NCBI RefSeq assembly: GCF_000497125.1
Contig: NC_090602.1
Location: 868,001-932,000 of the forward strand
From: Spironucleus salmonicida
Lineage: Eukaryota
Direction: 5' to 3'
Length of the DNA: 64,000 bases
The notes under the pieces are model-generated. The model made no database searches. It was given only the letters and a program-made list of their open reading frames with translations, and was not told the DNA's origin. The position numbers and the translations under genes were made by a program. Positions 12,552 to 40,720 of the stretch are shown in pieces (within the stretch, counting starts at the first letter, position 1; the number at the start of each line of letters is the position of its first letter).

Positions 12552-12707
12552 CGCTACCAGCTCTTGAAGTGGTTCACAGACGACCCTATGGCCGCGACGC
12601 AGCAGGACCCACCTCGTTGCACGCCCCGGGAGGCACCGGCGGACAAGCTGTCCCGGGGCGTGCGGCTGCAGGACATCGCGAACGCGTCGTACGCCTCGGA
12701 GTTTTGA
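12552..12707 (+). pseudogene. 3' fragment of the MGAD-family gene 29628..29912
   Basis: RYQLLKWFTDDP...SEF* present; upstream is unrelated with an in-frame TGA at 12516. Confidence 0.75.
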
Positions 12708-12729
12708 CGGCCCGGAGTGAAAAATAACG

Positions 12730-15700
12730 TCACTTGAGCCCGCTGATGTTGAGGAAGCCGGCGTAGTTCTCGCAGAAGTACACCTCCTCCTGGTTATCGG
12801 CCAGGAAGGCCACGAAGCTGCGGTCGAACTGGAAGGGGGCGACGCCGAGGCCGTTGCGCTCGCAGAACATCGCGAAGGTCGCGAAGAGCACGGACACGAG
12901 GTTGCCGGGCGTGGACTTGGAGGAGCGGAAGAGCGCGAGGTTGGCGGCGTCGAAGTGGTGGTTGAGCAGCTTCTGGCTCAGGCCCTCGACGCGCTTCGCG
13001 AGGGTGAGCAGGTGCTTCTTGAGGGACAGGAAGGGGTACGCGTAGATGCCCAGCACGGCGTAGACCTCGGTCGTGAGCTCGTCGTCCTTGGAGGCGAAGA
13101 TCTGGTGGAAGAGCGCGAAGAGCTCCTCGGACCCCGCCGCCTGCCGCTGGGGCTTCAGAATGATGTTGCGGACCTGGAACTCGTCGAAGTCGGGGATCTC
13201 GGCGTTGAGGTGGCAGAAGACCACGTCGTCGGGGGCCAGGACCTGGCTGAAGTGGTTGAGGTGCTGGTGCAGCGAGAAGTCCAGTCTCTGCTCGATCGGC
13301 CGCTGCACGGGCAGGCCCCCATAGTCCAGCTCGGCCATCTTCAGCTCCATCGGGGTCGTGCGGCGCGCGTTGTGGAAGAAGGGCAGCGGGGGCGGGAGGG
13401 TCACCACGTCGCACAGGCGGGCCCCGTAGTCGGCCGGGAAGTACTCCAGGTGGGCCTGCTTGGGCGGAGGCTCCAGCTTCTTAGCGATGAACTGCTCGTC
13501 GTCGCAGTCATTCTCGCTGCTGGTCTCGCTCTTGGAGCCCCGCCGCATCTTGCGCAGCTGCTTGAAGTCATCCTCCGAGCTGAAGATGGTCGTCACGAAC
13601 TTGTAGCACGGGATCACCGGGGCGAGGCGGTACAGCAGGGAGCACGCCGGCTCCACGTCGTTCAGCAGGAGCCCGCCGTCGGTGATCTGCTGGGCGTCGT
13701 AGAGCACGCGCGTCTTCGCCGGGAAGGCCCCGTTGGCCAGACTGCAGTTCAGATCGACGGGCGTGGTGTACTTGATGTTGATGGAGCCGCTGAGGCCGCC
13801 GTTGTAGCCCGCCCCGATGCCGCCGCAGAAGGCGCACTTGAGCTGGCCGCACTTGCAGCCCTGGGCGTTGTCGTTGACCGTGTTCTGGAGGTTGATGTAG
13901 GGCTGGTGGCCGTAGAAGATCCGCTGGGACACCTGGGCGGGCACCGTGTCGCATATGCGGCCGCGGGTCTGCTGCTCGAGGTGGGCCTTGACGTCGCTGC
14001 CGAACACGCTGCAGCCGGTGTTCAGCTGCACGTTGTACGAGTAGGGGATGTTGTGCTGGAACCGCGTGCCGCAGACCGCGGACTGGCGCGTGAGGTCCGA
14101 GGTCTTCTCCAGGATGAGGAGCGAGAACTCGAGGCGCGTGAGGATGATGTGCAGCAGCTTCAGCGAGAAGAACTGCTCGTTGTCCAGGAAGGCCGTCTTG
14201 AGGTGGGCCTGCTCGCAGAGGAGCGGGGCGAAGAAGTCGTCGAACACGGCCTTCTTGACACACTCCAGCTGGAAGGCCGCTATCTCGACCTGGAACACCG
14301 CCTTCTGGCTCGCGAGTTGCTCGAAGAGGAGGGCCTGCTGGGCGGCCTTCTGCCCAACGATGAAAGCGCGGTAGGCCGCGTACGAGACGCCGGGCGCCAT
14401 CATGCTGGCGATGCTGGCCGCGTCGAACTTCTCGTTGAACAGCACGGTGCGGAGCATGAAGAGGCTGCGGACGGTGACACTGGGGAGCGAGAGCGGGCGA
14501 TACCGCGTGTAGACGTTGTCCAGGTTCTTGATGTCGCTGCCGGCGAAGGCACTGCTGATGTACATGTTGCTCTCGAGCAGCTTCTCGAGCTGACCGCGGT
14601 AGAAGAGCCCCATCTCGCCGGAGTCGAAGCTGACCTATTTGAGGCAGTCGAAAAGGCTCTTCTCGTCGGCCTCCGAGTACAGCTGCTTCGCGGCGTCGTT
14701 AATCTGGAAGGACGGCGTCTTCTGGAGGTCGGACAGGAAGGCCTCGAGGTAGAAGTTATCCTCCTCCTCGGCCGCGTCCGGCACTGGAGGCTGGCCCAAG
14801 GGCTGGAAATCGAGGGCGTGCGCGATTAGGTCCGTAAGCACGCAGACGTTGGCCGCGGGAAACTGGCCGAATATGGTCTTCTAGGAGGCGCTGAGCTCTG
14901 CCTTCTGCAGCAGGGCCTGCTTGTAGTCGTTGCTGTAGGGGTCGAACTGCTGGGTGCACTGGGCACCGATGCGCCGGGTGAGCTGCATGAGCTGCTTGGC
15001 ACTCTCGGGCGAGTGGCGGTAGTGGCGGAGCAGCTCGTGCTGGAGGTCCTCGAAGGTCATCTTGAACTTCCAGTTGAAGGCGCTGGGCGGCACGAAGGCC
15101 TGCAGCTTGCGGAGGCGGTGCTCGTAGCAGATGTCGGGCTTGAGCTTGAAGCGCCGGGAGTACACGACCTCGAAGATCTTGGGCAGGCTGACGTCGTTGA
15201 AGCAGTCGAGCTGGTTCGGGTTCACACACCCCTGCATGTCATGCCGCCTGCGCTCGAAGTCGGCCTGGAAGACCTTGTTTTGCATGAACTTCTTATCGAA
15301 TCCCGCTAGGCAGATCGTGGCGTGGTCGATGGACTTGTAGTAGGACTCCGGGTAGAGCAGGCGCCACGCTATGGCAGCGCGCTGCTCGGCGCAGCTGTTG
15401 AGGAAGACCTGCTTCTGGAGGGTGCGCACGATGATGGGGATCGTGATGACGGGGCAGCGCGCCATCTCGGTGAGGATCTTGCCCGAGCCGTAGACCTGTG
15501 TCAGGTGCAGCTGGAGGACCTGCGGCATGCTGGGCAGCTGGAACTGGCTGCTCGCCAGCGACACCGGCGCGTAGGTGGGGTGCTCGACCCAGGGGGGCGC
15601 CGCCGCCTCGGTATCCGCGGCCGCGTACTGCCGGGCGACGGCCAGGACCTCGCGGTCGAACTCCTCGGAGAAGGCGTCGCTCGGGGCCCGCGGGTCGTCG

Positions 15701-18700
15701 TCCTCGTAGGTCTTGTACTCGCCCTGGTAGAAGTAGTTGTTCATGCGCTCCTGGCGCTGGTCGAAGTTCTGGCGGTAGCGCAGGTGCTGGGCGCCCATCA
15801 AGGAGGCCAGCGCCACGTTCTCGTGGAGCGCGAGCCGCAGGAACTTGATCAGCGAGGGCGTGTAGACGCACATCCAGGCGACCAGGAGCTTGAGGACCTG
15901 GTTGGTGCGCAGGTTGAAGAGGCCGAAGCACAGCTGCTCCTCCTCGATATGGCACACGCGGGCCTCGGCGCCGGTGGGCGTGGAGAACTTGAGGTACTGA
16001 GACTTGATGGTGCTGAGGGCCGTCTTGCGCGTGAAGTTGTCCTCCAGGTCGGTGTCGAGCACGACGTCGTTCGCCACGTGCTGCGCCTCCGAGCCGAAGG
16101 GAATCGTGAAGTAGCGCCCGCGGTTGAGCACGGAGTTCGCCAGCTGGCGGGTCTCGTTGAAGTTCTGCGGGGTGCGGTAGGGCTCGTGCTGGAAGACGCC
16201 GGTGTCGAAGAGCTCCGGGTGCTGCTTCTGGTGCATCTTGAACATGTCGTCGGGGAGGATCTTGTAGTTCTGCGTCACCGTCTTGAGCTTGATGATGTTC
16301 TGGTCCTTCTTCAGGACCGAGAAGTCGACCTCCGGCTCGTAGTCGTCGTCGGTCACGATGGGCGGGAACTGGAACGGCTCCTTGTCGACGATGTCGAGCT
16401 GCTGGATGTGCTTGATCTCCTCGGTGCTGGCGAGGTTGCTGAGCACGAGGCTCTCCGGCTCAGGGGCTAAGAGCGTGGACAGCGGGTAGTTGGGGCCGCC
16501 GTTGCAAGGGAGCACCAGGTAGTCCATCCCGAAGCTCGCGGTGACCAGCTCCGCCACTATGTCCTCCGCGCTCTGCTCGTCGAACTGGTGGCGCTCGATG
16601 ACGTTCGCGGTGGTGGCGGCGTTGCGGAGCACCTCGCAGCAGCCGCTGAACTTGGAGCCCTCCCGCTGGCGGAGGTGGGTGATGTTGACCCCGCGCGGCG
16701 AGAAGTAGCCCGCGAAGAGCAGCCCCATCTCGAAGCGCATGCGGCGGTGGTAGTTGTCGAAGCTGCCGCGGGTGATCAGCTCGGCCGCCTAGAGCACCTG
16801 CAGGTCATAGTTCAGCTGGGCCGCCGGGGCGAGCAGCGCGTTCCTATTCTGTACGAAGACGCCGGCCTTGAGGGTCGCGGTGCGGTAGTTGAAGATGTCC
16901 GGGCACAGCAGCAGCCCGCGGAACTCGTTCACGACGTCCAGGTCCAGCTCCCCGCCGCACCTCCCGGTGCAGTACACGCCCAGGTAGTCGCAGGTGCAGT
17001 GGTGGCAGGACTCCCCGCACTCGAGAAGGTGCCGCTGGTCGCCCCGCACGCCGAAGTTGGTGTCGATGCGCGCCTCGATGAAGTTCAGCACCTCGAGCCG
17101 CTGGGAGTCGAACGCCGGGACAGCGACGTCGATGAGCCGGTGCAGGGACTGGGCGGTGGCGGCGGACTCCATCTGGGCGCCAAAGAACATCCGGAAGGCG
17201 GCGAGGAAGTGGGAGCAGGGGCTGCGCTGGATGGCGAGCTGGAGGCCGAAGCCGCACTTCTGGTTGTACTCCTGGAAGCTGAAGCTGGGGTAGCCGAGGT
17301 GGAGGTTGGCGCTGAGGCAGATCATCAGCTGGAAGAAGCTGTCCAGGTCGAACACGGTGAGCTTGCTCAGCTTCCCCGCCTTGACGAGCTGGAGGATGTG
17401 GTACGAGGCGTCCACCCTGCTCGCCAGCTTGGGGGCGGTGAGGAGGTGGCGCCCCTGGGACGGCTCCTCACTCTGGGACGGCTGCGGCGCCGCGGCAGAC
17501 GGCTGGGTGCTGGCCTTCTTGGGGCGCTGCTTGAGCTGGATCTGGTCGCTGATGTGCTGGTAGAGCGTCTTGAAATGCGCGGTGTGGACCTGGGCGCTCG
17601 CCCCAGCCTCGTACATGCCGCGGGGGACCTTGACGAAGCTGAAGCCGTTCTGGTGCTGGACCTTGACCTCCACCTGGTCGCCGACGGCCTTGACGTCGCC
17701 CTTGATGATCTTGATGCCGCTGAACTTGTTGATCGAGGCCTCATAGGCCTTGCGCTGGACCGCGAACACCTCGGTGTAGAGCTCCTGGATGAGGCCGCCG
17801 CGCTTCTGCAGGCCCTGCTGGTAGTAGGCCTCCACGCGCTGGATGATGTGCACGATGGCGCCCACTTCGTCGTCCACGGGGTAGCACGCCGGCCAGCCGA
17901 AGTTGTCGCCGCGGGGGTCGAGGATGCCGTTCTTCTGCATAAGCTGGAAGTAGTAGATGGCCTCGAGCTGGCCGAAGAAGATCATCGTGAAGCAGAACTG
18001 CAGCAGCTCCTGGTTGATGCTGCCGTTCTCGTACTCCTGCATGATGTTCTTGAAGCGGTACAGGTTGGGGCCGTCCTTCACCAGCCCCAGGAACTTCTTG
18101 CTGACCTCCACCTTGAACTCGTCGGTGAAGCGGGACTGGTTCGACAGCCCGAATTGTGCGGCCACCTGCTCGTACTCCTCCTGGTCGAAGGCGGAGGACA
18201 CCTGGGAGATCTTGCAGGCCCGCGGGTGCTGGGGGCCCGCCGTGCGGAAGCCACGACAAGCGGCGCGGGCGTAGCTGGTGCAGAAGCGCACCGGGTGGGC
18301 CGTGGGCTGCGGGGGGAAGCCGCGGTAGAGGAGGCGCTGCACGTTGTCGTCCAGGAGGCGCGCGTCCGGGGGCGAGAGCTGCAGGCGCTTCGTCGCGCCG
18401 CTGCACTGCATGGCCGGCGCGTTGAGGAAGTCCTGGTAGGGCGCGAAGTGCAGCTCCGCCGGCAGCACCTCGTTGAGGGCGGGGAGCAGCTGGGGCGAGG
18501 CGTAGAACTGGGCGTAGAGCCCCAGCAGGCGGTCCTCCGCGGCCTCGGCCTCCAGGGCGCGGCTGGCAGCGTCTACCGCCTCGGGGGTCAGGTAGGCCGG
18601 GATCTGCATGCGGTCCGCCGAGGGCTCCACGCGCTGCAGGCCGAACGACTCGAGCAGGGCGCGCGAGGTGGGGGACAGCGGCGGGGACGGCACGCGGGGC

Positions 18701-18792
18701 GGCTTCTGCTTCCGCGGCATGACGATCTCGACCTGGTGGGCCTGGAAGATGTTGTTGAGGAACACAGCCGGTACGATAACGTCCTTGGGCAT
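12730..18792 (-). CDS. SIN3: Sin3-like histone-deacetylase co-repressor (2020 aa), copy A
   Basis: Track ORFs fuse in one frame through 3 TAG; PAH-like helices (FYASPQLLPALNEVLP; FKNIMQEYENGSINQELL) and HID-like motifs (NYKILP, NSVLN...FTIPFGSE, CPVITIPIIVRTL...WR....ESYYKSIDH). Confidence 0.85.
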
Positions 18793-19262
18793 TTTGGAGT
18801 GGGGGCGCGAAGCGGGAAGGCCGCCCGATATGTTCGCCAACGCCCGAAGGCGGCGAGTGGCGCGGTCGGGTTTACGTTCAGCATATGTGTATTATCGCCA
18901 CCCACTTCAGCCTATTATACTTGGTGCAAACGAAGAAAAACCCTATGGAATGATTATCTTGTTTTATAGCGTGAAAAATAGCTAATTTTTATCCTAATAT
19001 ACTAATTTGATTTTCAGCTCAATTCGCTTATTTATTTAAAAAAATTAAAATTTATATTGGTATATTTCCTATACAATAATTAAGTGAACGCATTACGTTT
19101 AATAATTTACCATTTGCAACGAATCAATTTTTTGTAATGCGAAAGCTAAAAATACATTTATAGTAACAAATTGATATCGTTTGGACTAGTTTATGTAGCA
19201 ATAAGGAGAAGTTTATAAGGATGACACGCTAGAAGCTCTAGTATCAGGTTTAATAAAGTATT

Positions 19263-19644
19263 AATATAAATATAAATATAAATATAAATATAAATATAAA
19301 TATAAATATAAATATAAATATAAATATAAATATAAATATAAATATAAATATAAATATAAATATAAATATAAATATAAATATAAATATAAATATAAATATA
19401 AATATAAATATAAATATAAATATAAATATAAATATAAATATAAATATAAATATAATATAAATATAAATATAAATATAAATATAAATATAAATATAAATAT
19501 AAATATAAATATAAATATAAATATAAATATAAATATAAATATAAATATAAATATAAATATAAATATAAATATAATATAAATATAAATATAAATATAAATA
19601 TAAATATAAATATAAATATAAATATAAATATAAATATAAATATA
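19263..19644. repeat. Microsatellite (AATATA)~64, followed by short (TATATTAA)n
   Basis: Hexamer array with two 1-nt deletions. Confidence 0.97.
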
Positions 19645-19837
19645 TTAATATATTAATATATTAATATATTAATATATTAATATATATAGATCAATATATT
19701 TATATTAATATCCTTATATATATTAATATTAATATTAATATTTTTATTTTATTTGCCAGAAAACAACACAATTAACCCACCAACCTCAAAAAATTAAGAA
19801 ACTACGCGACAGCGCATTTAGCAAATAAAAACATCAG

Positions 19838-20362
19838 TCAAACCTAGCTAACCGCCCACTAAAAACCCTCGTCAATTCCGGTGCCATTCAACGCAGAACA
19901 CTCCTAAATCTGCCATTTGTGCCCCCTAAGATTTGTCAACTGCAACTTTTACGCAATTTCTGCGGCAGTTAGCGCCGTTGGAATATCCGATTTATTGCTG
20001 AAAACCAAAATTGGAACGTTCACGAGTTCTTCAGATTCCGCGCAAATGTTGAGCTCTACGGAGACCTCCTCCAGCCTGTTCGCATCAGCGGCGTCTACAA
20101 CGAAAACTAGACAGTTCGTGTTCTTAAAATAGTGTTTCCAGTACTATCTGACAGATTGCTGCCCGCCGACGTCGTAGCACTAAAGCTTCGACTTCCCAAA
20201 AGCGACCGTTTTGGCATTTAGGCCCTGCGTTGGCTAAGTTATGGTAGGATCCTCGTTTGAGATAGCCTTCAAAATTGTCGTTTTACCAGCATTATCGAGG
20301 CCGAGGATGAGAAATCTGAGGTCTGTTTTCGCATTCTTCAAAACTGAAGAGGTATTGCCCAT
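19838..20362 (-). CDS. ARL3: ARF-like GTPase, ARL3-type (174 aa)
   Basis: MG start, LGLDNAGKTT, PTQGLN, DVGGQ, YWKHYF, NKSD, WQIQECSAL. Confidence 0.85.
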
Positions 20363-20740
20363 TTTTGATGCGGACTGGAACGAAAATGAAAAGGCAATTA
20401 TTATGATTTTTATATCATTTAATATCGTTTAGTTTTATTTTTTGGTTTTAGAGGTAATGTTGATTTAAATATATTTTAATAATTAGTGTAATATAATGTA
20501 TTAGCTGTAAATGTTTAAATTAAATAAGTTATATTATTATATTAAATATAATTTGTTTTTATAAGTACTCAACAAACTATTTTAAGATTTAACAGTTTAT
20601 AGCAGTTAATTACTTATTAGTGTATATAAGCAGCATCAAATAGCAATTGATCCACTTTTTTTATTATAAATAATAATATTAAGAATATAAAATTAATATT
20701 ATTATGTATTATAATTTAAAATAAAAATAAAAATTCTAAA

Positions 20741-21289
20741 ATGTAGAAAGCCTAACTAGCTGACGAAAATATTTAACTTGCAAAATAAATCTAGAAAATG
20801 ATCGAGAAAAAGAACTCAATATTAAAAACAATTTTAGCACTCAAAGAAGAGTCCTAGATAAGTTAACAGTAAATATTATAAACATAATAATCCATAAAAT
20901 CACTTTAAATAAAAAATGAACATGAAAACTTAATAATAACACTAGAAGCAGAATATCTGGCAAAATCTAAGAAATTAAAGGTAATAAATAAACAAACTTC
21001 CCTTATACGCCATCTTTTAGACCACTAAGACGTGATTTAAGACGTAAAAGCGTTACACGAAACCCTTTAAGAATTATAAAATTAAATAAAAATTCACTCT
21101 GAAATTACTACTCTTTAAAACAATACTATTTCTGAGAAAGACTAACTACGGGAGGATTAGATTTAATAGCAGAAGGATATTCAGGCGTTTATCTTTAAGT
21201 GCAAGTAGGAGAAATAAGCTAATCGCTACAAGATGTTGAAATAACTGAACAGAGTTTCATATAAGGAGGCTATAAGGTTTTGGCAGTGA
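20741..21289 (+). CDS. Coiled-coil hypothetical protein (182 aa)
   Basis: Open only in table 6, many TAA/TAG, ends CAG-TGA. Confidence 0.7.
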
Positions 21290-21420
21290 AATAAGTGTTT
21301 ATGGTTTCAAATATCATAATTTCAATAATTACCATTTAATTCCATCATATAAACTAAGAGAAATTTTTATATTACTTTATTAATATAATTCATTATTGAT
21401 ATTATAGAAATCTATTCAAA

Positions 21421-22014
21421 ATGGGTTGCGGCCTCATTGAGCACACTAGCGATCAGTTTCGTATTAACGATGAAACTGTGCGCGACACATAGCATTAACC
21501 TGCCATTAGCTATTAAGAACGCGCCAATAACGATATTACTCACAAAATATTACTTCCAGCACCTGAACCGTAATCAACATCGGTATCAGTTCCAGAGGAG
21601 CTTTTCGAAGCAATAAAGATGAATGAAATTGAGATAGTGTAGCGGTTAGGGGCAAAGTTTGCCAGGCGTTTCGTCGGCGGTAAGACACCTCTGATGGCAG
21701 CGCGTACAGATTGTCAGGCCGCGCTTCTGCTAGGAGGATTAGGCTTGTAGACACGTCAGGGGCGCACTGCGCTGATGATACACGCTAGCTGCGGCTGTCT
21801 AGGTATCTGCTAGCTTTGCCTGCCCGAAGCCCGCATGGTCGATGACGACGGACGTACGGCCCTGATGCACGCGAGTAAGCACGGGCACGCCGAAGTTGTG
21901 CATCTTCTGGCTAGCTACGAAGGGGAAATCAGGGACGACAAGGGGCGCGGCTTTCGGGACGTGTGGGCTGGCGATAGCGCGCAGATTGGAGAGTGCGGTA
22001 AGCAAATTCCGTGA
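21421..22014 (+). CDS. Ankyrin-repeat protein (Protein 21.1-like) with an MGC acylation-type N-terminus (197 aa)
   Basis: GKTPLMAA, GRTALMIHAS, EARMVDDDGRTALMHASKHGHAEVVHLL. Confidence 0.85.
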
Positions 22015-22221
22015 AGCGATTTGGAGGCTGCGTGTGGCGGCAGTTTCTGGTAAGAAAGCGCTCACAGGAGCTATGAAGGGCGTTAGGAACCTCTGAAAAG
22101 TGAGTGCAAGTTACTTCACTGCGCGGGACACTATGGGCTGCATAAATATTTTGCAGCGCCGAATGACTTTGGAGCGGCTCGCTGGACCTCCTGGCAGCGA
22201 CGCTCCAGACGGCGCGCCTCA

Positions 22222-22455
22222 TCACGGGCCGAAGCAGTCCGAGCCCGCGCTGTCGGGGCAGGGGTTGAGGAAGCTCGGCGCCCTGGCCAGGCTGATGCGG
22301 CTGCTGTTGGGAAGGAACATGTCGCGGAGCAGGTCGCTCTGGAGCTGGATGATGTCGATCGCGGGGAAGGGGTCGATGCGGGCCAGCCTGCCGGGGTCCT
22401 GGAAGCCCAGCCTCTGCGTGAGCTGTCTCTGCATCTTCTTGTGGTGCTTGTACAT
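22222..22455 (-). CDS. Hypothetical 77-aa protein (MYKHHKK), copy A
   Basis: AAAATG start, high GC3. Confidence 0.65.
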   Translation of the reverse strand: MYKHHKKMQRQLTQRLGFQDPGRLARIDPFPAIDIIQLQSDLLRDMFLPNSSRISLARAPSFLNPCPDSAGSDCFGP

Positions 22456-22599
22456 TTTGGCAGGTGGCGCAATAGGGCCGAAGGGGCGAATTGTGGCCGC
22501 CGGATTAAGCTGTCACTGGCTCTAACTGTATATGTGAGGCAGTTCGGGCCGTGGTCCCGTGTTTGTACTGTGAAAATGGAGTGGGAACCACGGCCTCGC

Positions 22600-23115
22600 T
22601 CACTCGCCCCCCTGCCACGCCGCCTTGCACTCCACGCCGGCCGGGGGCTGCTGGGGCGCCGCGCCGAGCTGGATCAGCCAGCGACCCTTGACGGTCCAGG
22701 CGGCCTCCTGCGGGCCCCTGCTCTCCAGGAAAAAGTCCCCCGGCACCTCGTAGCAGAAGACGCCGTCGAACTCGAAGTCCGCCATCTCCTCTGCGCGGAT
22801 CTGGTCCTGGAACACCGGGATCAGCGCGTTACGGCACGTGCGCGCGCTCGCCGAGTCCTTGGAGCTCACCACCGCGGCCGCGATGAAATCATCCGAGATG
22901 AGACGCTTCAGGAGCCGGACCTGTGTGAAGTCGGCGCACAGCACCCCGAAGACTGGCTCCTCGGCGCAGCTCTGGCGCACCTGGATCGCGATCCGCAGCA
23001 TCTCCTGGTAGGCGGTCTCGAGCCGGAGCTCCAGTGCAGACTCCAGGTGCTGGGAGGGCTTGTAGAACTCCAGGGCTGCATACTGCGCGATTATCTGGTC
23101 GATGAAGGTGTCCAT
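22600..23115 (-). CDS. Hypothetical 171-aa protein (MDTFIDQ), copy A
   Basis: TATAATA upstream, high GC3, ends GAG-TGA. Confidence 0.75.
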   Translation of the reverse strand: MDTFIDQIIAQYAALEFYKPSQHLESALELRLETAYQEMLRIAIQVRQSCAEEPVFGVLCADFTQVRLLKRLISDDFIAAAVVSSKDSASARTCRNALIPVFQDQIRAEEMADFEFDGVFCYEVPGDFFLESRGPQEAAWTVKGRWLIQLGAAPQQPPAGVECKAAWQGGE

Positions 23116-30228: not shown

Positions 30229-30651
30229 TCACCAGATGCTTCCTCTCGTAACGATACTGCTACTTCTTCGGGATCGTTGAAGCTTGACGTTTGGCAGCTG
30301 ATTTAATAGTAACTCTCTATAAAGATCAACTTTATCTTTATTATCTTTAATTACGCCATCCCCTCCAGGAGAAAATGCCGGAAGATGCCATTTTACACTA
30401 GAAAGATCATGCGATTTTAAACTAAGAAACTCTGATGGTAATTATATGTTATTATTTTTTGCCTCAATATCATGCACCTATTTTTTTAAAGTATCATTTG
30501 GAGACATTATAATTTTTTTCGAACTGAATGTGAAAAAATCCTCTCTTTTATGTATTTTAGCAGCTTATTTTTCCAGATTATTATAGTGCTCTTTCGTGCG
30601 ATTTATTTCGTCTAAAACTGACTATAAGGAAAAATCTCTTGACTTTTTCAT
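30229..30651 (-). CDS. Hypothetical protein (140 aa)
   Basis: MKKSRDFSLQSVLDEINRTK...RGSIW*; AT-rich then C-rich upstream. Confidence 0.6.
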
Positions 30652-30958
30652 TGCAATAAGGAATGGGATAATATATTTAATGAAATATATAGTAATTAGT
30701 AATTAATAATTTTAATTTGTTTTTATTTTTGAAATATGATTTATGATTTTTCGAAAAAATGTATATTCTTTACAATAATTGGTAATTATTTTTATTAATT
30801 TTTCTGAATAGTATTACTTATTAAACTAGCATCAACTGTCGATAAATTATTATTGAAAATCTTATTGAATTAAAATTTGTATTAAGATTGTCATTCAAAG
30901 TTATTGCTTGATGTTTAATTTAAAAATTATTACTCATAAATTATTATGATAATATGAA

Positions 30959-31222
30959 TCACTATAATAAAACTGGATTTTAGGTAAAGTATAATACGCT
31001 CTTTTACAGACAACGCTATTTCTGTCCTTTACAGATTATTTCTTCTACTTTGCCAAGCTTTTATAAGAGTTCCAACTAAAACTTAACCGTTTCATCTGTT
31101 GATGGTTTGAAAGTCATAATTTCTATAGAATCATCAGAAGTCTTCTTCCAGTGCACATTTGGTACTGGTTTTAACATAGTTATAACACACCGTTAATATT
31201 GGGTTATTACAGTAAATTTCAT
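30959..31222 (-). CDS. Hypothetical protein (~87 aa, start uncertain)
   Basis: Open in table 6, ends TAG-TGA (AGTGA). Confidence 0.4.
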
Positions 31223-31690
31223 CTGCGGAACGGGTAAATAATAAATGATTTATTGTGAGCTAAATGTCAATCTGAATAAAAAGATTCTTAAACTTTGGTT
31301 CTAATTTAAATTGGATGAGTATTGGAGAGATTAACTAGATAATTAGAAGCAAACCTCTGATAAAAAATTAGTTTTAAAATATAAATATATTATGGAAGGT
31401 TTCTTTTTCTATATTGGTTTAACGATATATCTTGATATTACATAAGTAAAAGTTATTTTTATAACATTCTTAAGTATAAAATTTAATTTAACAAAATTAT
31501 GAATTAGTAAATTATAATCTTAGAATTTAAAAAATTAACTTAAACATTATTATTCAATTTTATATAATATTATAATAAAAATAATATCAATGCTTATTTA
31601 TAATTTTATTGAAATTTTTATCTTGTAGTAATAAGGAAGCAGTTATTACAATAAAATTATTCTATCTTAAGGTATTTGGCAAATTATATC

Positions 31691-31993
31691 TCACTCCAAA
31701 TTCATATCTATACAATCATCTGAAATAAGGGATACGTAGGAATCAGACTACTACGAACATAATGCTTCGTTTGATTAATTAATCAAGAAATTCATATTAC
31801 TAAACGATGGCTTTATGGTTATATCTTTTTCTTTAAATGTAGAACGATTACTTACTGCAGTTAGCAAAAGATGATCATATGATGAGTTTCTCTAAGATAC
31901 AATAGATTTCTCACTATATTTAATATATTCAATAGAATGAGTCTTTTATTACATAAACCCTGGCCTTTTTGGATTTGGAGGTAATCCTTTCAT
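31691..31993 (-). CDS. Hypothetical protein (100 aa)
   Basis: MKGLPPNPKRPGF...MNLE*, ends GAG-TGA. Confidence 0.6.
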
Positions 31994-32335
31994 TTACTCT
32001 AATTCTAACTTTTACAATATATATTTTTATATAGATATATGGCAATATTACAATATTTTACTTAGACTAAATAATTTAATAATACATATATACATTTTTA
32101 TTCAAAATTTACATTTACAATTTTAGACTCTTTTAGGAATTACAAAACCTATTATATTTTGTTTAAACTAAATTATGCAACCAATAATTGTAAAATATTC
32201 AATTATTGATTTAATTTTGAGAATAAGTTATTTCATAGTCGTCTTATTTTCATATTGACTAAGTCTAAAATAAATCACAATTTTATAATGTTAGATATCC
32301 AATAAAGAGCTGACTAGCTCGCTAGCCTCCGTTGA

Positions 32336-32666
32336 GCAGGCGGTGGAGCTGCTGGGCCGGTTCCCCCGGGTCGTGCTCAACCTCAAGGGCGCCGCACGGC
32401 CCCCGCCCCGCGTCCAGCTGGAGGCGCGCCAGCTGCTGCTCACGATCCGGGCCCGGCCGCAGGCGGTGCTGTGCCTGGACCTGGAGCCGGGGCTGTGCGC
32501 GGGCTTCCAGTTCGTGTGCAAGCACTTCTTCGACACCGCGCACCACCGGAGCGAGCTGGGCTTCGACTTCGACGCCGCGGTCATGCGGGTGGCCGGTGTG
32601 GTCCCGCCCCTGCCGGCGCGCAACACGATCTCGCTCGCGCGGTACTACTGCGAGGACAACGAGTGA
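32336..32666 (+). pseudogene. 3' fragment (~110 codons) of LRR gene 38837..40720
   Basis: No in-frame ATG between an upstream TGA (32256) and the block. Confidence 0.75.
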
Positions 32667-32683
32667 GCTGAGTCCGCTCCAAA

Positions 32684-33145
32684 ATGGCGATGATCGGGCA
32701 GCTCCAGGACGCAGTGCGCGCGGTGCCCTCCTCCTACTTCACGGCCTCCCCCCGCTTCGGGGAGTACGTGGCCGACTACCTGCAGCTGCAGCTGGCGCTC
32801 TACCGCGCCCCCGCGGACCCCGCCGCCCTGGCCGCGCTCCTCCGCCGCCTCCTGCCCTACCAGGCCCCGGGGGCGTACACCGCCGCGCTCTCGGACGCCG
32901 CCGCGCAGCTGGAGAGCCTCCACGAGTTCAGGGCGCTCGCCGAGTCCGCCTGCTTCGAGCGCGGGCCCCTTCTCGCCCGCAAGGCACAGCTCGAGGAGTG
33001 CGCGTTCCTGGCCGACCGCGAGCTGGACCGACTGCAGCAGCGCACGCAGGTGGCCCCCGCCCCCGAGCTGCTGCTGCTCTGGCGCTGCTTCCTCGGCGGC
33101 CTCTTCGTGGCCTCGCTGGCGTCCTTCCGGCGCATGGCGCAGTGA
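32684..33145 (+). CDS. Hypothetical 153-aa protein, copy A
   Basis: AAAATG start, high GC3, ends CAG-TGA. Confidence 0.75.
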   Translation: MAMIGQLQDAVRAVPSSYFTASPRFGEYVADYLQLQLALYRAPADPAALAALLRRLLPYQAPGAYTAALSDAAAQLESLHEFRALAESACFERGPLLARKAQLEECAFLADRELDRLQQRTQVAPAPELLLLWRCFLGGLFVASLASFRRMAQ

Positions 33146-33154
33146 TCTCGTTGT

Positions 33155-33361
33155 TCACTCCAGTAGGCGGAATCCGGCCACGCAGCCCGCCTGCTGCATC
33201 ACCTCCAGCTCGAAGAGCGCCCACGCCTGGGCCCTGGGGTTCGCCGGGTGCAGCACCACGCCGCCGCAGCGCTGGGTGGCCACGATGCCCGGGATGCGCG
33301 CGCAGAGGTGGTCGATGAGGTCCGAGGCCCCCAGGTCCACTGCGATGTCCGAGCAGTCCAT
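33155..33361 (-). CDS. Hypothetical 68-aa protein (MDCSDIAV), copy A
   Basis: GAAATG start, ends GAG-TGA. Confidence 0.7.
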   Translation of the reverse strand: MDCSDIAVDLGASDLIDHLCARIPGIVATQRCGGVVLHPANPRAQAWALFELEVMQQAGCVAGFRLLE

Positions 33362-33630
33362 TTCGGGTTGCGAACCTTGGTGGAAAGGAATGTATTATCG
33401 GACTATAACAATGTTAGAAGAAAAGTATACGAGTGAAATTAGTAGAAATATGAAATCGGTGATATTATAAACCTGTTAGTTTATTAATGTGGTACATACT
33501 TATTTAGGGGTTTATGATGGGGAAGCTTGCTACATTGATACTTTAAGATTATTGCCGGCCAAACTACTGTTCTTGTTCCACCCAGGAATATCCGATTATA
33601 ATACGCTGACGACCCTGTCCGCAAAGCGGA

Positions 33631-34146
33631 ATGGACACCTTCATCGACCAGATAATCGCGCAGTATGCAGCCCTGGAGTTCTACAAGCCCTCCCAGCACC
33701 TGGAGTCTGCACTGGAGCTCCGGCTCGAGACCGCCTACCAGGAGATGCTGCGGATCGCGATCCAGGTGCGCCAGAGCTGCGCCGAGGAGCCAGTCTTCGG
33801 GGTGCTGTGCGCCGACTTCACACAGGTCCGGCTCCTGAAGCGTCTCATCTCGGATGATTTCATCGCGGCCGCGGTGGTGAGCTCCAAGGACTCGGCGAGC
33901 GCGCGCACGTGCCGTAACGCGCTGATCCCGGTGTTCCAGGACCAGATCCGCGCAGAGGAGATGGCGGACTTCGAGTTCGACGGCGTCTTCTGCTACGAGG
34001 TGCCGGGGGACTTTTTCCTGGAGAGCAGGGGCCCGCAGGAGGCCGCCTGGACCGTCAAGGGTCGCTGGCTGATCCAGCTCGGCGCGGCGCCCCAGCAGCC
34101 CCCGGCCGGCGTGGAGTGCAAGGCGGCGTGGCAGGGGGGCGAGTGA
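33631..34146 (+). CDS. Hypothetical 171-aa protein, copy B
   Basis: Same protein as 22600..23115. Confidence 0.75.
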   Translation: MDTFIDQIIAQYAALEFYKPSQHLESALELRLETAYQEMLRIAIQVRQSCAEEPVFGVLCADFTQVRLLKRLISDDFIAAAVVSSKDSASARTCRNALIPVFQDQIRAEEMADFEFDGVFCYEVPGDFFLESRGPQEAAWTVKGRWLIQLGAAPQQPPAGVECKAAWQGGE

Positions 34147-34290
34147 GCGAGGCCGTGGTTCCCACTCCATTTTCACAGTACAAACACGGGACCACGGCCC
34201 GAACTGCCTCACATATACAGTTAGAGCCAGTGACAGCTTAATCCGGCGGCCACAATTCGCCCCTTCGGCCCTATTGCGCCACCTGCCAAA

Positions 34291-34524
34291 ATGTACAAGC
34301 ACCACAAGAAGATGCAGAGACAGCTCACGCAGAGGCTGGGCTTCCAGGACCCCGGCAGGCTGGCCCGCATCGACCCCTTCCCCGCGATCGACATCATCCA
34401 GCTCCAGAGCGACCTGCTCCGCGACATGTTCCTTCCCAACAGCAGCCGCATCAGCCTGGCCAGGGCGCCGAGCTTCCTCAACCCCTGCCCCGACAGCGCG
34501 GGCTCGGACTGCTTCGGCCCGTGA
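34291..34524 (+). CDS. Hypothetical 77-aa protein, copy B
   Basis: Same protein as 22222..22455. Confidence 0.65.
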   Translation: MYKHHKKMQRQLTQRLGFQDPGRLARIDPFPAIDIIQLQSDLLRDMFLPNSSRISLARAPSFLNPCPDSAGSDCFGP

Positions 34525-34731
34525 TGAGGCGCGCCGTCTGGAGCGTCGCTGCCAGGAGGTCCAGCGAGCCGCTCCAAAGTCATTCGGCGCTGCAAAATAT
34601 TTATGCAGCCCATAGTGTCCCGCGCAGTGAAGTAACTTGCACTCACTTTTCAGAGGTTCCTAACGCCCTTCATAGCTCCTGTGAGCGCTTTCTTACCAGA
34701 AACTGCCGCCACACGCAGCCTCCAAATCGCT

Positions 34732-34824
34732 TCACGGAATTTGCTTACCGCACTCTCCAATCTGCGCGCTATCGCCAGCCCACACGTCCCGAAAGCCGCG
34801 CCCCTTGTCGTCCCTGATTTCCCC
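34732..34824 (-). pseudogene. 3' fragment of ankyrin gene 21421..22014
   Basis: GEIRDDKGRG...KQIP* without the ankyrin repeats. Confidence 0.7.
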
Positions 34825-34856
34825 CTCAAAGTCGACTATTCCGGCTCCTAACACCC

Positions 34857-35645
34857 TCATTTTCCCGCGTCCGCCATCGTGAGCTCGATAATGCGCCGCT
34901 GGACGCGGTCCACCATGTGGAGCGGGACCTCGATCTGGTGGAATCGCGTTTTGCCGGCCATCCCGAACTGCCCCCCGAGCAGCTTCTCGCACATTTTGCT
35001 CTGGAACAGGTGCACCAGCCCGCCCATGCCGACGTCGCCGCCGCAGACCAGATGCGCTGCGCGCTCCGCCGCGGTGACGCTCATGTTCGTGAGGCCCGAA
35101 AGCTCGCGGAAAGCGGACTCGGCCGAGTTGTAGAAGCTCTAGCAGGCCGAAACGAGCCCCGCAGCTTGCCGTTTGGCCTGATTCTGCTGCGTCTCGTCCA
35201 GCTGATCGTCCAGCTGATCGTCCAGCTGCTGGCTCGGCATGCGGTTGTACTTGCGCTTGTAGCGCAGGACGAGGTCAAGTAGGAACAGCTCCTCGGTGGT
35301 AACCTTGATTTTTAGCTGCTGCGCCTGCGCCTTCGTGTAGCGCACAAGCACGAGCTGCAAGATATCTGACGTCTCCTCGACTCGCGGAATTTGGAGGTGC
35401 AGCTTTTCGGTGGAGTCGATGAAGTCTGCGAACTGGAAGTTTCGTGAGAGGCAGAGTCTGAAGAACTGTGAGCGCAGGAAGCCCGTCTGCGTTCGCTCGA
35501 TAATTTGGTCGTGGAGAGAGGATAATGTTGCAAATGCGTGCGATTCCAGCGTTATTTGCTGGTTGGAATTAAACTTGTAGTCTGGCGAATCGATCGTTGA
35601 AAGCGGTGAAAGGGAGTAGATGGTGATGTCTATTGGAATTGACAT
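34857..35645 (-). CDS. Hypothetical protein (262 aa)
   Basis: Two track ORFs joined by TAG at 35139; contains a short QLDD tandem repeat. Confidence 0.75.
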
Positions 35646-36095
35646 TTTTAGAAAGAAAAAGGAAGGGATAATTATAATTTAATATTATATAATATTATTT
35701 ATATAAATCAAATGAAAATAATAAAATAGTGTAAAAAAGTAAAGATATATGAATTATTAAGTACCAAAAGAAGTTTGAGAGTTAAATAGTTAGATAAATG
35801 TAGAATAATTTTTAGAGGCATAATCACGGACACAATATTTTGATCATAATCATTTTATGCCTAATTCTATGTTTGTAAATATATAGGTAATATATACTCT
35901 CTTTGAGTTATAGTACGGTTGCTATTTATAAATACTATAATGTATAATAACTCTAGTATTATTATGTTATTCTATAATTTTTATGTAAACTCAATGTAAA
36001 TAATCATAAATTTGATATAATATTAATAATTGAAATTACCAACTTTACAAAAAATATAATTTATATATCATGCTCTTCAGTAAATAGAATTAGTA

Positions 36096-37589
36096 TCATT
36101 TGACCAGTAAATAAATAAGGCCTGCAGTTGTTCCAAGCGCCCAAAGTACTAAAAATACTAACGAAATTATCTTAACATTATGCATGAAGCTCAACCCAGG
36201 TAAGTTAAGCCCTATTTTCATGAAAAATTCGGGATTTTTCCTCATAGGTGGAAGTGTTGAATTTGCCACAAATGAATTAATTGCGTAGCCAAGGCCAAAC
36301 ATTTTGTGCTTTTATACCCACAAAAGTGGTTGGTAGTGAGAAAATACTTTAAAAGTCTCAATACCATGGTAGTTACCGATACCTGACTATCCTACTCCAC
36401 CAAATGGGAGCTGGGAAATCTGATAAAGTAGGACTTGGTTAATCGATAATGCTCCTGCAGAGATATTTCTCATAAAATACTCTTTTTCTTGCTTCATATC
36501 AGTGAACAAATAAGCTGCTAAAGGTCTACATTGTAAGTTTGGAACATAAAATGTTTCTCTATACCACTATATTTAGTCATTTAATGATTTAAACTTGACA
36601 ATAGGAAGAACATTACCGAACAGTTCTTATGTGAGTAATTCGTCAGTCTTATCTACTTCTATTAGAGTTATTGGATAGATCAAATTTTCTTTATCTAAGA
36701 AACTATGCTGATATATTATTTTTCTTGTTTTCACGACATCTTCTAAATATGCATATTTTTCTTTGCTAATAATCTTGCAAATATGTTCGTTGGTTTTAAA
36801 TTTCTATTCGACTATTTTAATAATATCATTTACTACTGATTCGGTATCTGGCGTAACACAAATAAAGTTCGGTGCAATGCAAGTTTATCCTGCATTAAAA
36901 AATTTTCCTAATGATATCTAATATGACGCTTATTTTTTATTACATTTTCCTAAAAACACTGGATTAACACCTCCAAGTTCTAGAACACAACGATTTAAAT
37001 ATTAAGCACATTAAGCTTAAATGATCTTCGCAACCGGGATTGATCCTGTAAAAAACACACAACTAAATGGGCGGGGAAGTAACTAGGTATGGTCCATGAA
37101 AAAACAAAACAATTTATCTGGGAATTCTCTAGCTATTAATTCAAAAACTTTTAAAATATTTGGTGTTTATGGGGATCCTTTTAAAGTTACTGGACATCCT
37201 GCTGCAAATGCACCTATCAAAGGGACAAACGCTAAGTTTACTGGATAATTAAAGGGTGAAATAATTAAAGATGGACCAATCGGTCTGGGTATAAGTTGCG
37301 AAGTAGTATTTTTGAAAATCAAAGATTATTTTACTTTTTATGGTTTCATTAAAAACTTAAGATTTTTCTTGAAGTAATTTAATTCATGTATAACTGGCTC
37401 AATTTCTGATAATTCTGATTATCTTTAAGATTTATGCAGATCTAATACTAAAGCAGAGCATAAATCCTATGAATACTTTTTAAAAACCTTCTCAAATTTA
37501 AGTAAAATATCCATACGACACTAATAAGGTTCAAGAGCTCCATCTAAATAAGCAGCCTATTGAATTTAAAAAATTGAATCAAACTCCAT
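36096..37589 (-). CDS. Aldehyde dehydrogenase, ALDH3/fatty-aldehyde type, with C-terminal membrane anchor (497 aa)
   Basis: SPFNYP, FTGS, LELGG, NAGQTCIAP (Q=TAA), ELFG, LPFGGVGQSGIGNYHG; hydrophobic tail. Confidence 0.93.
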
Positions 37590-38141
37590 TTATAAACGTA
37601 ACTAAAAATTAAAAGTGTATTATAATCAATTTAACCAATAAAATATTTATTCATATATTAATATAAAAAGATACTATATAATAATATATAAATATTTATT
37701 AGTATACGATGCTAGTTTTCACTAAAAGTGGCATTATAATATTATTTAAATATTAAAGTACTTTATATTTATTATAATACGTTTTATTATTTGTAACTAT
37801 ATAATATAAAGATAATTCTTGCTTGAAATTTAAAATTTACTTGTATTATTTAAATTAAATCGTATTGTAGTTAACATAAAGCAGTATGGGGTGCTATTTA
37901 ACTTGGTATCTCTAACCACTATAAACACTATGAAAAAATGAAATCATTTATCAAATCACAAACTATTCAATATTTTCATTTCAATTCTTTTAAAAATAAT
38001 CTAGTATCTTCTATACTTATGTTTATTATTTTGTTATCTTCTTTTACAGATGCAACATAACTATAGTTTCTATGAGTTTCATTCGTATAATACTCTTATC
38101 ATTGCATCAAAATTAAGTCCCACCAAGGTTCGCAACCAGAA

Positions 38142-38348
38142 ATGGACTGCTCGGACATCGCAGTGGACCTGGGGGCCTCGGACCTCATCGACCACCTCTG
38201 CGCGCGCATCCCGGGCATCGTGGCCACCCAGCGCTGCGGCGGCGTGGTGCTGCACCCGGCGAACCCCAGGGCCCAGGCGTGGGCGCTCTTCGAGCTGGAG
38301 GTGATGCAGCAGGCGGGCTGCGTGGCCGGATTCCGCCTACTGGAGTGA
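38142..38348 (+). CDS. Hypothetical 68-aa protein, copy B
   Basis: Same protein as 33155..33361. Confidence 0.7.
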   Translation: MDCSDIAVDLGASDLIDHLCARIPGIVATQRCGGVVLHPANPRAQAWALFELEVMQQAGCVAGFRLLE

Positions 38349-38357
38349 ACAACGAGA

Positions 38358-38819
38358 TCACTGCGCCATGCGCCGGAAGGACGCCAGCGAGGCCACGAAG
38401 AGGCCGCCGAGGAAGCAGCGCCAGAGCAGCAGCAGCTCGGGGGCGGGGGCCACCTGCGTGCGCTGCTGCAGTCGGTCCAGCTCGCGGTCGGCCAGGAACG
38501 CGCACTCCTCGAGCTGTGCCTTGCGGGCGAGAAGGGGCCCGCGCTCGAAGCAGGCGGACTCGGCGAGCGCCCTGAACTCGTGGAGGCTCTCCAGCTGCGC
38601 GGCGGCGTCCGAGAGCGCGGCGGTGTACGCCCCCGGGGCCTGGTAGGGCAGGAGGCGGCGGAGGAGCGCGGCCAGGGCGGCGGGGTCCGCGGGGGCGCGG
38701 TAGAGCGCCAGCTGCAGCTGCAGGTAGTCGGCCACGTACTCCCCGAAGCGGGGGGAGGCCGTGAAGTAGGAGGAGGGCACCGCGCGCACTGCGTCCTGGA
38801 GCTGCCCGATCATCGCCAT
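38358..38819 (-). CDS. Hypothetical 153-aa protein, copy B
   Basis: Same protein as 32684..33145. Confidence 0.75.
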   Translation of the reverse strand: MAMIGQLQDAVRAVPSSYFTASPRFGEYVADYLQLQLALYRAPADPAALAALLRRLLPYQAPGAYTAALSDAAAQLESLHEFRALAESACFERGPLLARKAQLEECAFLADRELDRLQQRTQVAPAPELLLLWRCFLGGLFVASLASFRRMAQ

Positions 38820-38836
38820 TTTGGAGCGGACTCAGC

Positions 38837-40720
38837 TCACTCGTTGTCCTCGCAGTAGTACCGCGCGAGCGAGATCGTGTTGCGCGCCGGCAGGGGCGGG
38901 ACCACACCGGCCACCCGCATGACCGCGGCGTCGAAGTCGAAGCCCAGCTCGCTCCGGTGGCGCGCGGTGTCGAAGAAGTGCTTGCACACGAACTGGAAGC
39001 CCGCGCACAGCCCCGGCTCCAGGTCCAGGCACAGCACCGCCTGCGGCCGGGCCCGGATCGTGAGCAGCAGCTGGCGCGCCTCCAGCTGGACGCGGGGCGG
39101 GGGCCGTGCGGCGCCCTTGAGGTTGAGCACGACCCGGGGGAACCGGCCCAGCAGCTCCACCGCCTGCGCGACGGCGGCAAGTCCCGCTTTATTCCTGCCC
39201 ATGTCAACAAGTCTTAGATCAGTGCTGCTGGCGAGCACAGCCATAAGCTAGGCGATGCAAAGATCGTTTAGCCCTACGTCACGGGCTACAAAGCATGTTA
39301 GATCCAGCATGCGCAGCAACATCAGGACTCCAGGTAACTTCCGGCGCAATTCACGGGTGCTAGACAAGTTTAGGTACCGCAGACGTGTTGCAGTCACATT
39401 ACTGGAGAATACAGACAAACGCAGAGCCTCGCAGGCGATTTTCGAGTACGCTCGCTCCAGGACGCTGAAACACTGACACGGGCCACCACCTAGCTCAGGA
39501 AACTGCGCCCTACCACCCGTGAGATCCAGCCCACGTAAGGCAGGTAGTCGCGGCTGGGCCTGCCATGTTGCATCTGCACAACCAGCTACAAGCTGTCGCC
39601 CGTCTTGGAAGAAGGCCTGGACCCCAACTGCCGTGCTCTGCAGGCGGAGAGCCACAAACTCGAGTCCGACCGGAAGCCCATCGAGGACTTCCGCAAGTTT
39701 GTAAATCGGGTGGTCCACCACGAGCACCCGCAATTACTGCATATCCCGGATCTGGCCGAATAGCCTGCAGCCGCTCCCACCCAGAAATTATGCGCCTATT
39801 TCAAAATGCTTTATGTGCCCAACGTGCTCCAGGGCCTGGAACTTGCAGTTGGCGAGCATCACAGAATCCAGACCCCGCAAATCTACGGGACCGCGGAACT
39901 AGATGTTGTCCATTTCCAGGTGCCGAAAGTGCGCAGCTGCGTCACGAAACTGCCCCGGCTCGCGCTACAGCGCAGGGTCTCTGCGGCTCTGGTTGGCAGC
40001 AAGCAGCGAGCCCGCGCTGGCGAGCAGGGACAAAACATCTGAAAAATCACCCGGCCGCAGGCCAGAATTGCTGACGTCCGCCACGGAGCCCCCGCCCATC
40101 AGCCCGCGAACTTTTCCAATTTCGCGCGCGTCGAATCCCGCGAAAATCCGCGTGTCGGCGACATCCAGCAGCGCCAGCGCGCGCTGCGTGCGCGCGATGT
40201 CCACGAGGACGCCGAATCGGAGCTTGTTGCCTGCGAGGCTGATTTTGCGGAATTCGTTAGCCGCAAAAAGGGCGCCGCCGAGCTCCCGGAGGCCGCATGA
40301 CTGCAGCGAGAGCTCCCGGAGGCCGCAGAGCGCCGGAAGTGGGAAATCGACGCGGCTTCCGGAGAGGTCCAGAATTCGTGCAGACGCGTGGCGCGTGATA
40401 TTAAGCGGGCCCAGGGCGAGCTGCTTGCGGTAGATCGCGTTCAGGGGCTACGAGGTGAGCAGAGGCGGCCGCGCTGCGAAAATGCTGTCGATTACCGTGA
40501 AATCGTGAAACTCAGCGTAGGCCTCCTGGCTTCCCAGAGTTAGCTGCTTGCTGGCCGCGAATACGCGGTAAAAGTGGTCCTCGAGGGGCGCCTGCAGGCT
40601 CAAATCGTGGAATTACTGAAAGCTCAGGTGCGGGGTAGCGAAAAGCAGCAGAAACCGGGGTAGCGCCGCTAGCTGTGCGGTACCGAGCCGTTCTGCTGCG
40701 AGCTGGAGCAGTGTTTTCAT
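38837..40720 (-). CDS. Leucine-rich-repeat protein (627 aa)
   Basis: One frame in table 6; ARILDLSGS, LRELSLQSCGL, FRKISLAGNKL, LRGLDLTG, LRYLNLSS, LRLVDMGRN; ends GAG-TGA. Confidence 0.85.

Follow-up and report, generated by a model that had tools for sequence, protein, structure and literature searches.

Can a DNA segment be nearly identical to its copy and still be an old duplicate? This question is raised by three interlocked pairs of inverted repeats (IRs) in a stretch of 64,000 nucleotides (nt) of Spironucleus salmonicida, a diplomonad that parasitises fish (NCBI RefSeq assembly GCF_000497125.1, contig NC_090602.1, positions 868,001 to 932,000 of the forward strand). We call this stretch the window, and all coordinates below count from its first letter. 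An earlier note on the same DNA had implied that the repeat arms are recent. Judging from base composition, we consider it probable, at roughly 60%, that the duplications are instead old and have been homogenised and enriched in G and C by ongoing gene conversion between their arms, with a slight preference for copying as their origin.

Three interlocked inverted duplications with GC-rich arms

A repeat search, a base-by-base comparison and self-blastn all returned the same three inverted pairs, at the coordinates that the earlier note had reported, and the two short gaps by which the pairs interlock, 299 bp (23161-23459) and 202 bp (33384-33585), were also as described there. In each pair, inverted arms that are at least 99% identical surround a unique spacer (4584 nt in IR1, 10425 nt in IR2 and 4736 nt in IR3). 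Repeats of 1-6 kb with 99.8-100% identity cannot be a product of chance. We named the arms A and A' (IR1), B and B' (IR2) and C and C' (IR3), so that the segment order reads L0 A x B g1 A' y C g2 B' z C' R0; junctions are written with a slash, as in A/x.

12552-18875: left arm of IR1 (A), 6324 nt, 65% GC
23460-29783: right arm of IR1 (A'), 7 mismatches in 6324 nt against A
21922-23160: left arm of IR2 (B), 1239 nt, 63% GC
33586-34824: right arm of IR2 (B'), 0 mismatches in 1239 nt against B
32336-33383: left arm of IR3 (C), 1048 nt, 72% GC
38120-39167: right arm of IR3 (C'), 2 mismatches in 1048 nt against C
18876-21921: x, unique AT-rich part of the IR1 spacer, with microsatellites, an Arf GTPase gene, a coiled-coil open reading frame (ORF) and the 5' part of an ankyrin-repeat gene
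23161-23459: g1, unique 299-bp gap from IR2-left to IR1-right, between the diverging starts of the 171-aa and 2020-aa genes
29784-32335: y, unique AT-rich segment from IR1-right to IR3-left, 26% GC
33384-33585: g2, unique AT-rich 202-bp gap from IR3-left to IR2-right
34825-38119: z, unique segment that holds the genes of a 262-aa protein and of an aldehyde dehydrogenase

The GC content was 63-72% in the arms and 26-34% in the spacers, and a drop of 0.17 or more within 100 nt marked 8 of the 12 junctions. The enrichment of the arms over spacer and flanks extended to silent and non-coding sites. Each arm is a gene unit that consists of one or two whole genes, a short upstream region and the 3' end of a neighbouring gene. 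For all gene calls in the window, TAA and TAG were read as glutamine (code 6, translation table 6); the IR1 arm holds three ORFs under table 11 and a single 2020-aa ORF under table 6.

12730-18792, minus strand: 2020-aa orphan gene, left copy, GC3 (GC content of third codon positions) 0.96, 5 amino-acid differences from the right copy
23543-29605, plus strand: 2020-aa orphan gene, right copy
29628-29912, minus strand: 'MGAD' gene, 94 aa, whole, converging on the 2020-aa gene; its 3' 156 nt lie within IR1-right
12552-12707, plus strand: dead 3' stub of MGAD at IR1-left, 156 nt, without in-frame ATG
21421-22014, plus strand: ankyrin-repeat gene, whole (Pfam Ank_2, E=3e-15); its last 93 nt lie within IR2-left
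34732-34824, minus strand: ankyrin 3' stub at IR2-right, 93 nt, with an ORF of at most 42 aa
22600-23115, minus strand: 171-aa orphan gene in IR2-left, with a plus-strand copy in IR2-right (33631-34146)
38837-40720, minus strand: 627-aa orphan gene, whole; its last 331 nt lie within IR3-right
32336-32666, plus strand: dead 3' stub of the 627-aa gene at IR3-left, 331 nt, without in-frame ATG
32684-33145, plus strand: 153-aa orphan ORF in IR3-left, with a minus-strand copy in IR3-right (38358-38819)

With code 6, the outer edges proved to cut genes as the earlier note had observed: MGAD, the ankyrin-repeat gene and the 627-aa gene are each whole at one arm and reduced to a 3' stub at the other. 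The intact-gene junctions are A'/y for MGAD, x/B for the ankyrin-repeat gene and C'/R0 for the 627-aa gene, and each of these genes is whole only there. The same note had placed every inner edge just upstream of a start codon. This held for IR1, whose edge lies 83 nt before the ATG of the 2020-aa gene, and for IR2, 45 nt before the ATG of the 171-aa gene, and did not hold for IR3, where the stop codon of the 153-aa ORF comes first and the edge follows 238 nt further downstream. In C, the last 331 nt of the 627-aa gene sit upstream of that ORF, and a possible 134-aa ORF is also present in B. Pfam returned no family for the 2020-aa, 171-aa, 153-aa, 627-aa, MGAD or 134-aa products, so the leucine-rich-repeat label ('LRR'), which the earlier note had given to the 627-aa gene by eye, has no support from Pfam. 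In a word-based, length-limited search of a protein database, the 2020-aa protein matched only the S. salmonicida uncharacterised protein itself, and the 627-aa protein likewise gave only its self match and no paralogue.

The genes in the arms have an extreme composition. GC3 was 0.96 in the 2020-aa gene, 0.91 in the 171-aa gene and 0.97 in the 153-aa ORF, in a genome of 33% GC, and 0.25-0.55 in five AT-rich unique genes nearby. Glutamine was encoded by CAG at 174 of 179 codons in the arms and by TAA or TAG at 80 of 111 codons in the AT-rich unique genes. The non-coding DNA of the arms was also GC-rich (0.69 in stretches of 83 nt and 238 nt alike), so this richness does not stem from codon selection. 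The 627-aa gene, which crosses the IR3 edge, serves as a within-gene control: its GC3 rises from 0.68 over the 518 codons outside the arm to 0.97 inside it (107 of 110 third positions G or C; Fisher p=4e-13), and the step falls at the exact base where the duplication starts. MGAD showed the same direction of change, with 0.85 in the arm and 0.56 outside (p=0.003). A GC3 step at a repeat edge within a gene points to a process that has acted for a long time on the duplicated state rather than to recent duplication. The recency implied earlier is thus hard to reconcile with GC3 values of 0.91-0.97 in a 33% GC genome and with steps that lie exactly at the edge inside single genes.

The sequences just beyond the repeats also bear on their age. 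In the first 15 nt outside the six edges, 42 of 90 positions matched, compared with 66 of 270 further out. This short similarity fits eroded repeat ends and, together with the composition, suggests that the duplications are old. The idea that they had once been much longer was dropped, since the flanks showed no significant homology beyond the first ~15 nt. Local alignment of 300-nt flanks gave z scores between -0.7 and 0.5 for five of the edges and of 2.0 for the inner edge of IR3 (11 of 200 shuffles), and semi-global alignment of 90-nt flanks did not reach significance (53 and 73 of 1000 at best; 139 of 2000 at the IR3 inner edge). Among the nine differences between arms, eight are A/T versus G/C, and five of the seven in IR1 change an amino acid, a share that fits what fresh, unfiltered, very young mutations would give.

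Presence of the repeats in contigs of public runs

To examine the duplications in public data, Logan contigs, which are built from 31-letter words, were placed on positions 20000-39999. The runs placed were X1 and X2 (DNA, possibly of the source sample) and X5 and X6 from a second study; X5-X8 are only guessed to be RNA. Contigs from the runs of both studies either stopped exactly at the repeat edges or crossed them. The junctions B/g1 and g1/A' were bridged with at least 31 nt on each side (X5 record 17, X6 record 25), as were A'/y (X6 record 27), z/C' (X1 record 6, X2 record 14) and C'/R0 (X6 record 31). Contigs of unique segments entered the arms by 30 nt, the word length minus one, at x/B, y/C, B'/z and A'/y, and L0/A appeared as a loose contig end at 29783 whose reverse complement equals the 30 nt that directly precede 12552. 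Nine of the 12 junctions were therefore present among the contig rows listed, namely 8 of the 10 that lie in 20000-39999 plus L0/A as the loose end; C/g2, g2/B' and A/x were not among these rows, and no listed piece covers g2. The contigs stop at the edges of the repeats and also contain the junctions, which argues against an invented duplication, and we conclude that the inverted duplications are genuine. The contigs of x and y each run on into a single arm. Because a second neighbour of appreciable frequency would be expected to halt the contig, an arrangement that lacks the copies is probably not common.

It is very improbable that the repeats are an assembly artefact, uncollapsed haplotypes or mixed arrangements wrongly joined into one path. 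Such an explanation would account for the word depth of the arms, which was 1.0-1.55 times that of their unique neighbours in X1 and irregular in X2, not twofold; contig word depth does not equal copy number, and its GC bias is uncalibrated. It could also appeal to the fact that short-read contigs cannot fix the orientation of the spacers, six isomers having one and the same junction set. Opposed to it are the nine listed junctions and the single arm neighbours of the unique segments, to which the published assembly adds long-range support: it was built from PacBio reads at 161x with a read N50 of 14.6 kb, longer than the largest arm (PMC9509377), and the window lies on a 1.61-Mb contig.

The contigs also carried variation at single sites. 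At 24717, a site that differs between the arms, both letters were present in X1 (99.8 of 187.3). At 23633, an IR1 difference that causes P31T, the letter found in one and the same B-g1-A' context was that of the left arm in X5 contigs and that of the right arm in X6 contigs; if the X5 and X6 runs are RNA, both copies of the 2020-aa gene are transcribed. At 28074, the contigs of all four runs showed G, the left-arm letter, and none the C of the right arm, which may be a minor variant or a consensus error. A 12-nt tandem unit in the 262-aa gene (35194-35228) was one copy shorter in the contigs of X1, X5 and X6, and not in those of X2. This difference may be a length polymorphism or an assembly difference.

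Age and origin of the duplications

If the duplications are old, the arms of each pair would repeatedly repair each other by non-crossover gene conversion, which would hold their identity at 99.8-100%. Mismatch correction favouring G and C during this repair would have raised the arms to 63-72% GC and their genes to a GC3 of 0.91-0.97. The dead stubs would then last only through lying inside the converted tract, and the 3' ends of the three working genes would be dragged along and rewritten together with them. The within-gene step would tie the GC-rich islands to the duplicated state and make GC-biased gene conversion testable in a diplomonad.

Several findings weigh against this reading. Conversion is read from composition, with only nine differences between the arms and with contigs that collapse the two arms. 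The four IR2 junctions have no step, with GC differing by only -0.02 to 0.10 across them, and the ankyrin-repeat gene, at a GC3 of 0.68 in the arm and 0.51 outside, shows no significant change (p=0.12). The word depth of the arms falls short of twofold, as described above. The patchy similarity in the 15 nt at the edges could be imperfect microhomology from the original joining rather than the remains of eroded ends. Finally, unique genes next to the arms are themselves fairly GC-rich, with a GC3 of 0.68 in the 627-aa gene outside the arm, 0.78 in the 262-aa gene and 0.65 in a kinase gene (the unique genes of intermediate GC3, 0.65-0.78, without a copy in the window occupy 34857-35645, 39168-40720 and 40798-41600). 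Since these neighbours are unique and the 627-aa protein has no paralogue in the protein database, duplication cannot be the sole source of GC richness here.

The same GC-rich neighbours could be taken to mean that the segments were GC-rich beforehand for another reason, for example a mutation bias of the region or hotspots of local recombination, and that their duplication, by breaks at transitions between GC-rich and AT-rich DNA, is recent. GC-rich unique genes do adjoin the arms, one of them, the 627-aa gene, without a paralogue. The edges of IR2 lie within DNA that is GC-rich on both sides, and GC-rich regions had been reported in this species before the duplications were known (excerpts of PMC1805757). 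This explanation nevertheless needs breaks at exact compositional steps in 8 of 12 junctions, two of them inside coding sequences, and it meets the genome-wide observation that duplicated regions are GC-richer than the rest (44.7% versus 30.7%; PMC9509377). We therefore regard it as unlikely. Recency is also central to the proposal that the locus arose by three recent, successive staggered-break inversions, each of which left an inverted duplication whose arms are near-identical because they are young and whose segment still flips. To weigh this proposal, the possible orders of events have to be considered.

All three-step undoings of the present arrangement were enumerated, a step being either an inversion with a one-sided staggered duplication or the insertion of a copy. 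Among 256 histories, 32 keep the three intact-gene junctions in the ancestor, and six candidate ancestors result; the interlocked layout thus limits the possible orders of events. We had entertained the idea that interlocked pairs are impossible by successive inversions, and it was rejected when the enumeration showed that such a chain exists. The pure inversion chain, found in 2 of the 32 admissible histories, has to begin with IR2, after which IR1 and IR3 follow in either order; its ancestor would be L0 g1' z y' A x B g2' C' R0. In this history, inverted copies flank the candidate inverted segment, as staggered breaks would leave them, and the order of events is consistent. The arrangement is explained just as well by five other duplication-free ancestors, through inserted inverted copies with or without inversions, and six new junctions are needed in these cases too; with insertions only, the ancestor reads L0 x B g1 A' y g2 z C' R0. 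The earlier note had proposed a chain of successive inversions. The structure on which it was based is real and such a chain can produce it, but the chain is one admissible route among several.

Recent inversions would thus be topologically possible with IR2 first, and the outer junctions fit the staggered-break model, since an intact gene marks one arm of each pair as ancestral there and the other as new; the model would also have the inner junction ancestral at the opposite arm. One-sided duplication is also a known outcome: where Drosophila inversions carried duplications, 12 of 18 had them at a single breakpoint (excerpts of Ranz et al. 2007, PMC1885836). The Drosophila cases resemble the present locus in that inverted copies of formerly unique, partly genic sequence are left behind together with truncated genes, often one breakpoint is duplicated, and breakpoint regions are reused. 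They differ in scale and state, since the copies reported in that part of the source are 46 bp to ~1.9 kb long (median 321 bp), ~88% identical and decaying, whereas those described here reach 6.3 kb at 99.9% identity. Further, IR2 would have to be the oldest pair, yet it has 0 mismatches, the lowest arm GC and no edge step, although this is a weak proxy of age. Recency also cannot explain a GC3 of 0.96 over 2020 codons or the within-gene step at the edge. On balance, a series of young inversions is an improbable account of the locus.

For old duplications maintained by conversion, the preferred route of origin is that replicative template switching placed copies of inverted segments in intergenic DNA close by, C and B' ending up 202 bp from each other. 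The copies would arise from break repair, with junctions in AT-rich intergenic DNA or at the 3' ends of genes, a step that we put forward with low certainty. We lean only slightly towards insertion over a staggered-break inversion chain with IR2 first, and the proxies that favour template switching are weak, which is a further point against our reading. They are that IR2 shows no sign of being the oldest pair, that IR1 is more than three times as long as the largest inversion-linked duplication given for Drosophila in the excerpts cited above, and that the edge similarity could be imperfect microhomology. The mean intergenic length in S. salmonicida is 460 bp (PMC9509377). The clustering of breakpoints needs no special mechanism or fragility, because junctions would be tolerated mainly in short intergenic DNA.

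Serial template switching, as in fork stalling and template switching or microhomology-mediated break-induced replication (FoSTeS/MMBIR) and in duplication-inverted triplication-duplication rearrangements (DUP-TRP/INV-DUP), places inverted copies near their source, leaves short unique pieces and produces microhomology-like junctions. The present locus is similar in having inverted copies close to their source, pieces of a few hundred bp between junctions and microhomology-like similarity at the edges. Unlike in those rearrangements, each segment is present only twice, without triplication, and the junctions may be too old to read.

Stability, known parallels and neighbouring features

Crossovers between arms could flip the spacers. 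By enumeration, such crossovers reach six isomers, all with the same junctions, and all pairs are inverted in only two of the six. Whichever of the three single flips takes place, a neighbouring pair ends up as direct repeats, and these would stand around single-copy genes such as that of the Arf GTPase. As direct repeats made by a flip could delete the genes between them, non-crossover conversion is expected to dominate. The earlier note had further suggested that flipping would swap promoters. This suggestion failed, because the 45-83 nt upstream of the starts lie within identical arms and a flip would only exchange the contexts of identical copies. Genes in the unique segments include the following.

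19838-20362, minus strand: Arf GTPase gene, in x
34857-35645, minus strand: 262-aa gene, in z
36096-37589, minus strand: aldehyde dehydrogenase gene, in z

The interlocked repeats might conceivably be an active recombination device, in which flips create direct repeats from which a gene block is excised or amplified as circles, giving copy-number variation like that of Leishmania, while the same overactive and strongly GC-biased repair makes the puzzling genes of this species with GC3 near 1. In Leishmania, according to part of the text of PMC4028189, direct and inverted repeats are spread through the genome for stochastic amplification. The likeness is that of a parasite in which repeats flank gene blocks and can in principle form circular or linear amplicons. 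In contrast, no alternative joint, amplicon or deletion was seen in the contigs placed on 20000-39999, and we consider such a device quite improbable.

A closer parallel is offered by the palindromes of primate X and Y chromosomes (excerpts of PMC8981503 and PMC3723533), which are inverted repeats around a unique spacer with arms that are >99.8% identical and GC-richer than their surroundings. There, GC-biased gene conversion from arm to arm keeps the identity, and inversions of the spacer are reported to be rare. The present repeats differ in that their arms measure 1-6 kb rather than tens of kb to Mb, and in that three pairs interlock instead of standing apart. The GC effect is also far stronger here (GC3 0.96 versus 0.25-0.55 nearby), the organism is a binucleate protist, and conversion is proposed from composition.

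Within S. salmonicida, 19.2% of the genome is duplicated at a threshold of at least 2 kb and at least 95% identity, and these regions have 44.7% GC compared with 30.7% elsewhere (Xu et al. 2022, PMC9509377). They resemble the present arms in being near-identical, mostly one-gene stretches of raised GC, and IR1 exceeds the threshold. They differ in that totals only are given and that IR2 and IR3 fall below 2 kb. The orientation and interlocking of repeats, the truncated neighbour genes and the base-sharp GC steps are absent from that description. Papers of 2007 and 2010 had left the sharp GC islands and genes with GC3 near 1 hard to explain; in the excerpts concerned (PMC1805757, PMC2874811), GC-rich regions and genes with silent third-position GC (GC3s) near 1 are so described, and for the 14 S. 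salmonicida genes whose GC3s exceeds 75%, not one S. barkhanus orthologue is GC-rich (excerpt of PMC2874811). The 2022 paper noted only that duplicated regions are GC-richer. A full-text literature search that combined 'Spironucleus' and 'biased gene conversion' returned no paper.

Scans for tRNA genes, Rfam families and tandem repeats found none at the repeat junctions. The only tRNAs found by the scan were two tRNA-Asp genes, at 1341-1413 and 6077-6149. Self-blastn over bases 1-56000, with matches lying wholly beyond 56000 in a tandem array filtered from the listing, detected only one other long repeat, a GC-rich direct repeat of 544 bp with 99.6% identity (878-1421 and 5614-6157), each copy of which ends in tRNA-Asp(GTC). 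The spacing of this repeat, 4736, equals the spacer length of IR3; we judged this to be coincidence, as the two numbers measure different things. GC falls sharply after 1421, and the 544-bp repeat may be another converted duplicate, in direct orientation.

A diverged MGAD paralogue of 103 aa lies at 399-710 on the plus strand and is not repeated within the window. We had considered it as a low-GC control, and it was dropped because it is itself GC-rich (GC3 0.76-0.80). AT-only microsatellites occur at 19253-19751, with ~65 copies of ATAAAT, and at 4414-4603, with ~32 copies of ATATCA. A quasi-palindromic stretch (19555-19754) starts ~380 nt from the A/x junction. The tandem array occupies 58655-64000 and runs off the end of the window; it consists of at least 15 copies of a 348-bp unit in two alternating subfamilies, with ~99% identity within and 65-76% between them.

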